Notes: a model not told the origin generated them from the sequence alone. A stretch of 9,262 nucleotides of DNA from a virus (IMGVR_UViG_2695420643_000022); one strand, 5' to 3'; shown: positions 3,873 through 4,631, counted from the stretch's first letter. A program made the numbers and translations.

Positions 3873-4445
3873 TATCGCGTCCTCAACAATGAATTTTGTG
3901 ATGCGGTGCCTGGTGCCTCCAGGTGACGTTAACCAGTTAACAATTAACGCCGGATACAGAGCATTCTCGTTACTCAGCAAATGACCGCTTTACCGATTTA
4001 ACTGTTCCGCGTGCGCTGAGCCGCATTCACCGCATCACAAAATTCACTTTTAAAAAAGGGCGGCAGAGCAGTCACGGAGTAAAACTGATACCGCCAAATG
4101 TCACCAGAATATTGATAACAGAGGGCGTTGCAGCGGGGTTGTCACTTAAGCGTATGGTCAACCTGACAACCCGGTGTCCTCAACGGGGAAAGAATAACCC
4201 CGCCATACTTACCGCCGCGCCATTTCGCGGATTGCCACAACCGGAAGCGCACGGTCGAATTAAATTTAACGACGGCTCTAAGGGAGAAGGACTTCGCCGT
4301 GCACTTTCGTGTTATGCCCTGACTTTTCAGGGATATATCCTTTCAGTAAACTGTCAGTGCCGGATTCTTATCTGTGTCCGGCGCACGACCACACGTAGCA
4401 GCGTGTTGGTCTCCATTTTTAATTCAGCCCTTAATGGAGGATAAA

Positions 4446-4631
4446 ATGCCAAACAAACCATGCCCTGCCTGTAACGCTCTTTCTGGCTTTTTAGAGAAGG
4501 GCGGTTATTACATTTTTAACTGTCCAGAACATGTTGAATTTCATATATCAAAACTTGACAGTATCATTACAAAGCCAAATCAGTATCAGTCTGATTTACT
4601 GAATAAAGAGTTAAACGCCGCCCGAGATTAA
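4446..4631 (+). CDS. Small zinc-ribbon protein, 61 aa, on the strand opposite to the surrounding operon
   Basis: Strong RBS TAATGGAGGATAAA-ATG; CPAC...NCPEH (CxxC plus CxxH) metal-binding pattern: MPNKPCPACNALSGFLEKGGYYIFNCPEHVEF... Confidence 0.6.
   Translation: MPNKPCPACNALSGFLEKGGYYIFNCPEHVEFHISKLDSIITKPNQYQSDLLNKELNAARD

Follow-up and report, generated by a model that had tools for sequence, protein, structure and literature searches.

What lies between dicB and an oppositely oriented zinc-ribbon gene in a prophage early operon, where 573 bp pass without a convincing ORF? We addressed this question in a 9,262-nucleotide stretch of viral DNA (IMGVR_UViG_2695420643_000022), which we refer to in full as the window. 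For the ORF-free stretch at positions 3873-4445, the original prediction had offered three readings: a moron-like insertion with its own promoter, a small RNA locus, or the decayed remnant of a larger gene. The second of these was borne out. We are highly confident that 3873-4445 represents the untranslated, dicF-bearing spacer in a Qin-like dicBF operon, a grading that applies to our explanation as a whole. The locus is already known, as it is the "long untranslated region containing dicF" that has been published. The region looks empty because RefSeq/PGAP leaves the DicF noncoding RNA unannotated, and this is also the case in the RefSeq/PGAP record that matches the window. Of 5426 complete E. 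coli genomes, 4316 carry the part upstream of and bordering DicF (4110-4445), and in none of them is it annotated. The stretch had also been described as GC-rich; there is a slight rise, with a GC content of 49.4% for 3873-4445 and 50.6% for 4110-4445 compared with 47.1% for the window, but the wording was overstated.

By homology, the window is a CP-933M/Sp4-type lambdoid prophage whose leftward, early-left operon is of the Qin-like dicBF type; the 62-amino-acid (aa) gene bordering the stretch is dicB (Table 1). The 1.3 kb around the ORF-free stretch is 100% identical to the chromosomes of E. coli O103:H2 12009, many O157:H7 strains, and other EHEC, and pieces of it are present in 4719 of the 5426 complete E. 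coli genomes. Positions 2637-4387 and 5221-5541 are collinear with the Qin prophage of K-12. Going by gene order and direction, as given by homology and annotation, leftward transcription would begin below the DicA-like repressor gene and cross the relBE-like genes, ydfA, ydfB, and the split gene in the ydfC position; the transcript would next cover the zinc-ribbon gene in antisense and continue as a leader of approximately 335 nt.

TABLE 1 Coordinates of the genes, RNA elements, and mechanical ORFs of the window
Feature	Position	Strand	Basis or remark
Integrase and DUF4224 protein	present in window		annotated record and ORF list
Exonuclease, 823 aa	931-3402	-	
ydfD-type DUF1482 gene, downstream of dicB	3496-3687	-	Pfam PF07358, E = 2.8e-19
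dicB, 62-aa cell-division inhibitor	3687-3872	-	Pfam PF05358 DicB, E = 7e-39, full length; dicB in RefSeq
dicB SD, GAGGA	~3883-3879	-	
DicF-dicB spacer (dicB 5' UTR), with internal hairpins	3873-4057	-	fold and conservation profile
Variable island in dicB 5' UTR	3962-4001	-	conservation profile
Long-range duplex, 3' arm, ending a few nt before dicB SD	3886-3908	-	pairs with 4050-4028
Long-range duplex, 5' arm	4050-4028	-	pairs with 3886-3908
U-run of DicF intrinsic terminator	4052-4057	-	T6 read from sequence
DicF sRNA, 53 nt	4058-4110	-	Rfam RF00039 and comparison with K-12 dicF
Structured leader domain	4112-4254 (core 4127-4241)	-	covariance model R1, covariation, conservation
Closing stem of leader domain	4241-4234 with 4134-4127	-	
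Hairpin A (CCGCG-CCATTT-CGCGG)	4230-4215	-	CCGCG/CGCGG arms at 4215-4219/4226-4230
Arm B	base 4213-4211 with 4175-4173; tip 4202-4198 with 4188-4184	-	
Hairpin C	4172-4164 with 4144-4136	-	GGGTTGTCA/TGACAACCC at 4136-4144/4164-4172
Distal leader, less conserved	4255-4445	-	
61-aa CPAC...CPEH zinc-ribbon-type gene	4446-4631	+	RefSeq WP_001133046.1; convergent with upstream operon genes
ydfC-position gene, split	4669-5207	-	129-aa ORF 4818-5207 and unannotated 50-aa ORF 4669-4821
Hypothetical gene, ydfB, ydfA	upstream of ORF-free region		annotated record
RelE/RelB pair	between repressor gene and ydfA		
DicA/CI-like repressor	6287-6688	-	
cro-like and YdaT genes		+	strand opposite to repressor
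TTG extension of dicB	3684-3980		mechanical ORF
82-aa frame	3736-3984	+	mechanical ORF
110-aa TTG frame	4112-4444	+	mechanical ORF
36-aa GTG ORF	4142-4252	-	mechanical ORF
35-aa ORF	4354-4461	-	mechanical ORF

DicF and the dicB 5' untranslated region

DicF is among the oldest known bacterial small RNAs (sRNAs). Both DicF and DicB inhibit cell division, and in EHEC, DicF has been reported to influence virulence gene expression. A scan of the window with Rfam found family RF00039 on the minus strand at 4109-4058; the score was 77 bits (gathering score, 48; E = 4e-16), and all of the model was covered (positions 1-52 of 52). The RNA is identical to the annotated K-12 dicF at 51 of 53 positions and lies in the untranslated spacer on the dicB strand, upstream of dicB and with ydfA and ydfB further upstream. 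Its terminator hairpin (4095-4059, -15.9 kcal/mol) is followed directly by the T6 run. The loop segment that pairs with the ftsZ SD (CAGUUUUACUCCG) is the same as in K-12, and the duplex predicted between DicF and ftsZ (positions -29 to +25) has an energy of -36.6 kcal/mol, compared with -38.5 for K-12 DicF; shuffled sequences gave -30.6 ± 4.2, which is only about 1.4 standard deviations worse. Thus, the window does contain a small RNA locus, at 4110-4058 on the minus strand, but the hairpins that had been cited for it belong to the leader upstream (hairpins A and C), and DicF itself had not been located.

In K-12, DicF is a classical Hfq-dependent sRNA whose 5' end is generated by RNase E, while its 3' end results either from Rho-independent termination (53 nt) or from RNase III (72 nt) (PMC5069750, PMC9438474). 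Carried over from K-12, the same scheme would have the 53-nt DicF of the window start 16 nt past the leader domain described below, with an RNase E-generated 5' end and a 3' end formed at the terminator. The RNA that continues beyond the terminator is also predicted to be strongly folded (-90.2 kcal/mol and z = -4.6 for 4115-3860 on the minus strand). The main feature of the fold in the spacer is a long-range duplex of approximately 23 bp that begins a few nucleotides after the DicF terminator (Table 1). Across 103 distinct homologues, the pairs of this duplex are kept at at least 90%, and mostly at 99-100%. The duplex is almost invariant, so that there is little true covariation in this set, and the variation at 4032/3904 and 4031/3905 is an alternation only between G-C and G-U.

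Counted from 4110, the 72-nt form of DicF would have its 3' end near 4039. Because this position falls inside the 5' arm of the duplex, we infer that the duplex corresponds to the published RNase III site. The duplex is thus likely an RNase III substrate, going by where the published 72-nt end would fall. Read-through transcripts would fold into it, and a cut by RNase III would produce the 72-nt DicF together with a trimmed dicB mRNA. Terminator and duplex together would then divide the output of the operon between the sRNA and the toxic DicB and YdfD proteins. The dicB 5' UTR additionally gave a match to STnc100 (RF02076) at 3895-4044 (model positions 21-154 of 206), and with 33.6 bits, below the gathering score of 47, it was not counted as a member of that family.

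The identification of DicF fills a gap in annotation more than it raises a question; this copy has already been catalogued in EHEC. The part of the locus that merits follow-up is the covarying leader domain that it has in common with P1 and cdtI-type phages.

The structured leader domain upstream of DicF

A four-helix RNA domain is formed by the final 115-145 nt of the leader, and this fold is supported by covariation. The structure was obtained from a 19-sequence alignment (A3), on which a covariance model (R1) was built; R1 detects a single copy in each locus and scores that of the window at 155.7 bits. In the R1 alignment of 29 sequences, 97.9% of the cells are paired, and 11 pairs are changed on both sides, compared with 4.0 ± 1.3 in shuffled alignments (0 of 500 reached this number) and 0-5 in slid controls. 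In helix C, six of the nine pairs covary with pairing kept, arm B is formed by many different stem sequences, and the insertions and deletions are located in loops, with lengths not divisible by three. The alignment is shallow (effective sequence number, 1.62), all of its copies come from enterobacterial phages, and the invariance of the hairpin C loop is partly a matter of ascertainment, since two of the search patterns sat in it. Conservation across relatives, which the original prediction had proposed examining together with structure, was also high: 4271-4112 shows 97-100% identity in 103 distinct copies, which is on par with DicF and far above the start of the dicB CDS. The two hairpins pointed out at the outset are both part of this domain; hairpin C spans exactly the predicted 4136-4172, whereas hairpin A exists but sits at 4215-4230, 2 nt further right than had been given. 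Further upstream, mosaic breakpoints lie in the distal leader at approximately 4327, 4387, and 4451-4457, and positions 4331-4316 of this leader form a boxB-like hairpin, CCCUGAAAAGUCAGGG.

The domain is absent from Rfam, and the scan of the leader returned no other family at an E value of 1 or lower. A tRNA or tmRNA identity for the cloverleaf-like domain was rejected, as ARAGORN recognized none in it and none within the window. The core of the domain also occurs without a canonical DicF. It was found in phage cdtI, 2H10, and the Stx2c phages, approximately 260 nt past a PL-like promoter after cI, as well as in Salmonella phage F1055; in P1, it follows immediately after the C1-controlled P1ban promoter, inside the annotated "dicF-like region." Two pattern scans of IMG/VR yielded additional variants. 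A scan of contigs with the pattern GTGNNNTTTGGCGGNATCAG was too degenerate, with nearly all of its matches due to chance and one true match (L085). In 22 of 26 representative copies, an intrinsic terminator lies 20-70 nt past the domain, and the hairpin of this terminator and the single-stranded "seed" preceding it vary widely, with DicF, cdtI, P1, F1055, and other types.

With regard to function, we infer from its placement that the domain most likely acts in cis, placing the RNase E cut and/or tuning how often transcription ends at, or continues past, the sRNA terminator that follows. Because the domain ends 16 nt before the DicF 5' end and precedes a terminator in most copies, the most economical role would lie in sRNA release or in the balance of termination and read-through toward dicB or kil. 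We propose more tentatively, and with somewhat less than even confidence, that the domain is an undescribed cis-acting phage RNA module that recurs in Qin-type, cdtI/2H10/Stx2c-type, and P1-like phages. Most copies lie in repressor-controlled early operons, and most stand ahead of an interchangeable "seed + terminator" cassette, DicF being one such cassette. The module may direct the release of the downstream sRNA by RNase E, and it may also determine how much transcription terminates and how much reads through into kil and dicB, both of them toxic genes. When the leftward transcript was searched for sequences complementary to the invariant loops, no candidate outperformed those obtained with shuffled queries.

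Two other explanations for the domain have to be weighed. One is that it acts as a put-like processive antiterminator RNA, allowing read-through of the DicF terminator and later ones in lambdoid phages that lack N. An N-like gene is indeed absent from the early-left operons of the window, cdtI, 2H10, and F1055, the domain is promoter-proximal in P1 and cdtI, and most copies are directly upstream of a freely varying terminator, as a terminator-independent mechanism would predict. However, the domain of the window is far from the promoter and is present in a single copy per locus, with none in the 2.4 kb of the rightward operon (plus strand, downstream of the cro-like gene) that the window includes, and DicF termination is known to be efficient enough to yield the 53-nt RNA. 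Neither blastn-short nor R1 detected similarity to HK022 22000-30000, a stretch in which the put sites were not located. We consider an antiterminator role rather unlikely. The other explanation is that the conservation of 4112-4271 reflects a role of the DNA itself, either as a recombination linker of mosaic modules or as a protein-binding site. The mosaic breakpoints cluster nearby, and the block has different neighbors in cdtI-type phages, P1, and Qin-type prophages, both of which would be consistent with such a role. In contrast, the stems covary while the loops are fixed, as seen in helix C and arm B, and the orientation of the block relative to the downstream terminator is constant. We consider a role at the DNA level improbable, as a DNA site would not need the compensatory changes.

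We prefer a cis-acting RNA module. If it acts as proposed, phage sRNAs borne on such leaders would form a wider family with a common biogenesis platform, and DicF would belong to it. If the domain controls DicF biogenesis or dicB read-through, this would explain how the operon apportions its output to an sRNA on the one hand and toxic proteins on the other, as well as why the same platform has been kept ahead of different sRNA cassettes in unrelated temperate phages.

The zinc-ribbon gene and the coding status of the stretch

The zinc-ribbon ORF was confirmed at its predicted place, read against the operon and preceded by a near-ideal RBS (GGAGGA, 7 nt ahead of the ATG). It matches phrog_10133 (E = 7e-48), and compared with a 91%-identical copy in strain A19, its codons show nine synonymous and four nonsynonymous differences. 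An exhaustive HMMER search, from which two repetitive long proteins were disregarded, returned P0005 as the sole real distant homologue. P0005 is a 91-aa protein of 48% identity that keeps CPAC...FNCPxHxEF, and its gene is found in the same place and the same antisense orientation in another prophage, one without DicF and without the leader domain. The allele of the window is truncated by a TAA where A19 has TCA, and the frame past this codon still encodes a ...SGRSGPLKILQRPTIVELD tail, as in P0002. The gene is AT-rich (37.6% GC versus 47.1% for the window) and is absent from K-12 Qin. It was found in only 387 genomes, nearly all with at least 99% identity, whereas the adjacent leader is in 4316. 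It forms part of a module (4388-5220) that replaces the K-12 ydfC gene. Both pieces of the split gene in the ydfC position align to one 193-aa ORF of strain A19 (phrog_1363), and this gene has no similarity to K-12 YdfC.

On sequence grounds, the zinc-ribbon ORF is a genuine, narrowly distributed, horizontally acquired accessory gene that is separate from the DicF locus. It shows several traits of a moron, namely, atypical GC content and strand and a patchy presence. The idea of a moron-like insertion is thus plausible for this gene, given its strand, its composition, its restricted distribution, and the module to which it belongs, but not for the 573-bp region, which is an ancestral and widely conserved part of the operon. 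The promoter that had been suggested for such an insertion was not found: a crude consensus scan detected no sigma-70-like promoter ahead of 4446, where inspection by eye also revealed none, and a convincing terminator was likewise missing past 4631. It is conceivable that the zinc-ribbon mRNA, being antisense to the operon transcript, and the operon transcript interfere with each other.

The ORF could also be spurious, with its DNA being only part of a long 3' UTR of the ydfC-position gene. The protein falls into only two 90%-identity clusters among 5.8 billion proteins, has no match in Pfam, NCBIfam, or PADLOC and no tblastn match in the phage collection, and gave only insignificant TRIM/ZNF matches among PDB sequences. 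An AlphaFold2 model from the single sequence was unusable (pLDDT, 50.6), and, as noted, no promoter was found. However, the strong SD, the excess of synonymous over nonsynonymous differences relative to A19, and the existence of a PHROG family all argue for a real gene, as does a homologue that has diverged to 48% identity and still retains the motif, the position, and the orientation in a different prophage. A spurious ORF is, in our judgment, an unlikely explanation.

For 3873-4445 itself, the ORF list, Pfam, and PHROG supported no protein-coding gene on either strand, in agreement with the original prediction. The stretch contains only mechanical ORFs (Table 1), none of which matches Pfam, and among them only the 36-aa ORF matches PHROG, and that partially (phrog_8854, E = 8e-12, profile positions 29-52 of 59). 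This match was judged to be an annotation artifact over conserved noncoding DNA, and the ORF was rejected as a gene. The 110-codon frame, for which a homology search had been suggested, has no match in Pfam or PHROG and was also rejected. Its substitution densities by codon position (0.075/0.068/0.084) are flat, without 3-periodicity, and the homologous segment has an open plus-strand frame in any register in only 33 of 103 homologues, with lengths modulo 3 of 47/47/9 (n = 103). It is extremely improbable that the region derives by decay from a larger protein gene, either of the 110-codon frame or of a small minus-strand ORF such as 4142-4252: "hypothetical proteins" are annotated over homologous DNA in some phage records, but beyond the lack of periodicity and the broken frames, the hairpin loops vary by lengths that are not multiples of three, the stem changes are compensatory, and the PHROG match is confined to ultraconserved DNA, in an ORF that is truncated here and broken by indels in relatives.

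Comparison with known systems

Among the closest known systems is the dicBF operon of K-12 Qin (ydfABC-dicF-dicB-ydfD), which shares its gene order and strand logic with the window as well as a nearly identical DicF. The two are collinear from 280 nt upstream of DicF to dicB, with approximately 89-90% identity over this stretch and approximately 98% in the 190 nt adjoining DicF, and they have the same terminator and the same long-range duplex. Unlike K-12 Qin, the window has the 4388-5220 module (the split gene of the 193-aa type and the opposite-strand zinc-ribbon gene) in place of ydfC and a RelE/RelB pair between the repressor gene and ydfA, and its prophage still has an integrase, xis, and a full-length exonuclease. 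In CP-933M of EDL933 (O157:H7), the neighboring proteins are identical to those of the window (WP_001133046.1, WP_000394511.1, YdfB, YdfA, and RelE/RelB). DicF_1/Z1327 is a 52-nt minus-strand noncoding RNA and one of four dicF copies in EHEC (PMC5331693). The locus of the window appears to be DicF_1/Z1327 of EDL933 CP-933M, the two having been equated by position and strand and not base by base. Nothing of substance sets them apart, and the window is matched at 100% by O103:H2 12009 and by many O157:H7 genomes.

The weak partial match to STnc100 over the dicB 5' UTR includes the outer stem and the CCUGG-AGGCA-CCAGG hairpin, and a similar match, also below the threshold (35.5 bits against 47), lies at the analogous position in L468. 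The published STnc100/PasD copies are located near Q antiterminator and late genes and not upstream of dicB (bioRxiv 10.64898/2026.05.13.724894).

The put RNAs of HK022 resemble the leader domain by functional analogy only, as structured RNAs of early operons that lie upstream of terminators in a lambdoid phage without N. A put RNA consists of two stem-loops in approximately 70 nt, and HK022 carries both putL and putR. In contrast, the domain of the window has four helices and a core of approximately 115 nt, is present in a single copy, and is not promoter-proximal.

The "dicF-like region" in the leader of the P1 ban operon contains the same domain (102.8 bits with R1) in the same sense, followed by an intrinsic terminator, and the unit is under the primary repressor of the phage. 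Unlike in the window, the P1 domain is promoter-proximal, its terminator hairpin and putative seed are unrelated to DicF, and it is followed by tRNA genes and ban instead of dicB, while its stems B and C differ by compensatory substitutions.

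A shared RNA leader and variable candidate sRNA cassettes

DicF lies at 4058-4110 (-) of the window, but no ncRNA is annotated there by RefSeq/PGAP in the EHEC records NC_013353.1 and NZ_CP008957.1, although its Rfam score is far over the threshold; the locus appears empty because this ncRNA is missing from the annotation. Immediately 5' of DicF we found a four-helix RNA leader domain, for which Rfam holds no entry and whose structure is backed by covariation. The domain is common to the P1 ban leader, the cdtI, 2H10, and Stx2c phages, and Salmonella phage F1055. Differing "seed + terminator" cassettes were found 3' of this shared leader. 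Many of them start with UUUGGCGG and vary in their loops and single-stranded parts, suggesting that the cassettes form a DicF-like sRNA family whose members differ in their targets.

Coordinates of features in the window and in other phage and prophage loci (L-numbers, own coordinates)
Feature	Locus	Position	Strand
Four-helix leader domain	window	4112-4254	-
Leader domain copy	L243	2480-2615	-
Leader domain copy	L244	2494-2636	-
Leader domain copy	L246	2488-2633	-
Seed + terminator cassette	L244	about 2420-2490	-
Seed + terminator cassette	L319	about 3160-3215	+
Seed + terminator cassette	L323	about 2810-2870	+
Seed + terminator cassette	L398		
Seed + terminator cassette	L347		
Seed + terminator cassette	L291		
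Annotated 129-aa gene	window	4818-5207	-
Unannotated 50-aa ORF	window	4669-4821	-

The most divergent leader copies were those of two further loci, L403 (about 3964-5825), where the copy lies within an ORF-poor stretch of ~1.8 kb, and L384 (about 5060-5400). No terminator was found near the domain in either copy, and the two loci have in common an additional conserved noncoding segment downstream, parts of which match Klebsiella and Citrobacter phages.

Weak Rfam matches

Two different prophages each showed a sub-threshold match to STnc100 (RF02076) in their early-left region, one covering the dicB leader (window 3895-4044, -; 33.6 bits) and the other at L468 3779-3984 (-; 35.5 bits); these matches may reflect a distant relative of STnc100/PasD or chance. 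The match to COG2908 RNA (window 2551-2589, +), which sits within the exonuclease gene, scores 20.2 bits where the gathering score is 58.7 (E = 0.15) and is almost certainly due to chance.

Neighboring genes and known systems

The zinc-ribbon frame ends at TAA in the window and reads TCA in strain A19 (window 4629-4691, +), and beyond the TAA it still encodes the C-terminal tail of the 84- to 91-aa relatives. The common EHEC allele is thus a truncated one, shorter by about 19 to 30 residues. At the ydfC position, the 129-aa gene and the 50-aa ORF overlap by ATGA, and a single 193-aa ORF spans both pieces in strain A19; the arrangement represents either one gene disrupted by a frameshift or two coupled genes, and it has no relation to K-12 YdfC. 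Elsewhere, an ECs1072-family phage gene (window about 7685-8140, -) is a pseudogene with an internal stop according to RefSeq in the identical O103 record.

The distal leader carries a hairpin, CCCUGAAAAGUCAGGG (window 4316-4331, -), similar to lambda boxB (GCCCUGAAAAAGGGC); no boxA was seen with it, and the operon lacks an N gene. Additionally, the interval from the DicA-like repressor gene to ydfA holds an inserted toxin-antitoxin pair, RelE/ParE with RelB (window 5781-6259, -), whereas in K-12 Qin this interval contains nothing but the dicB promoter region.
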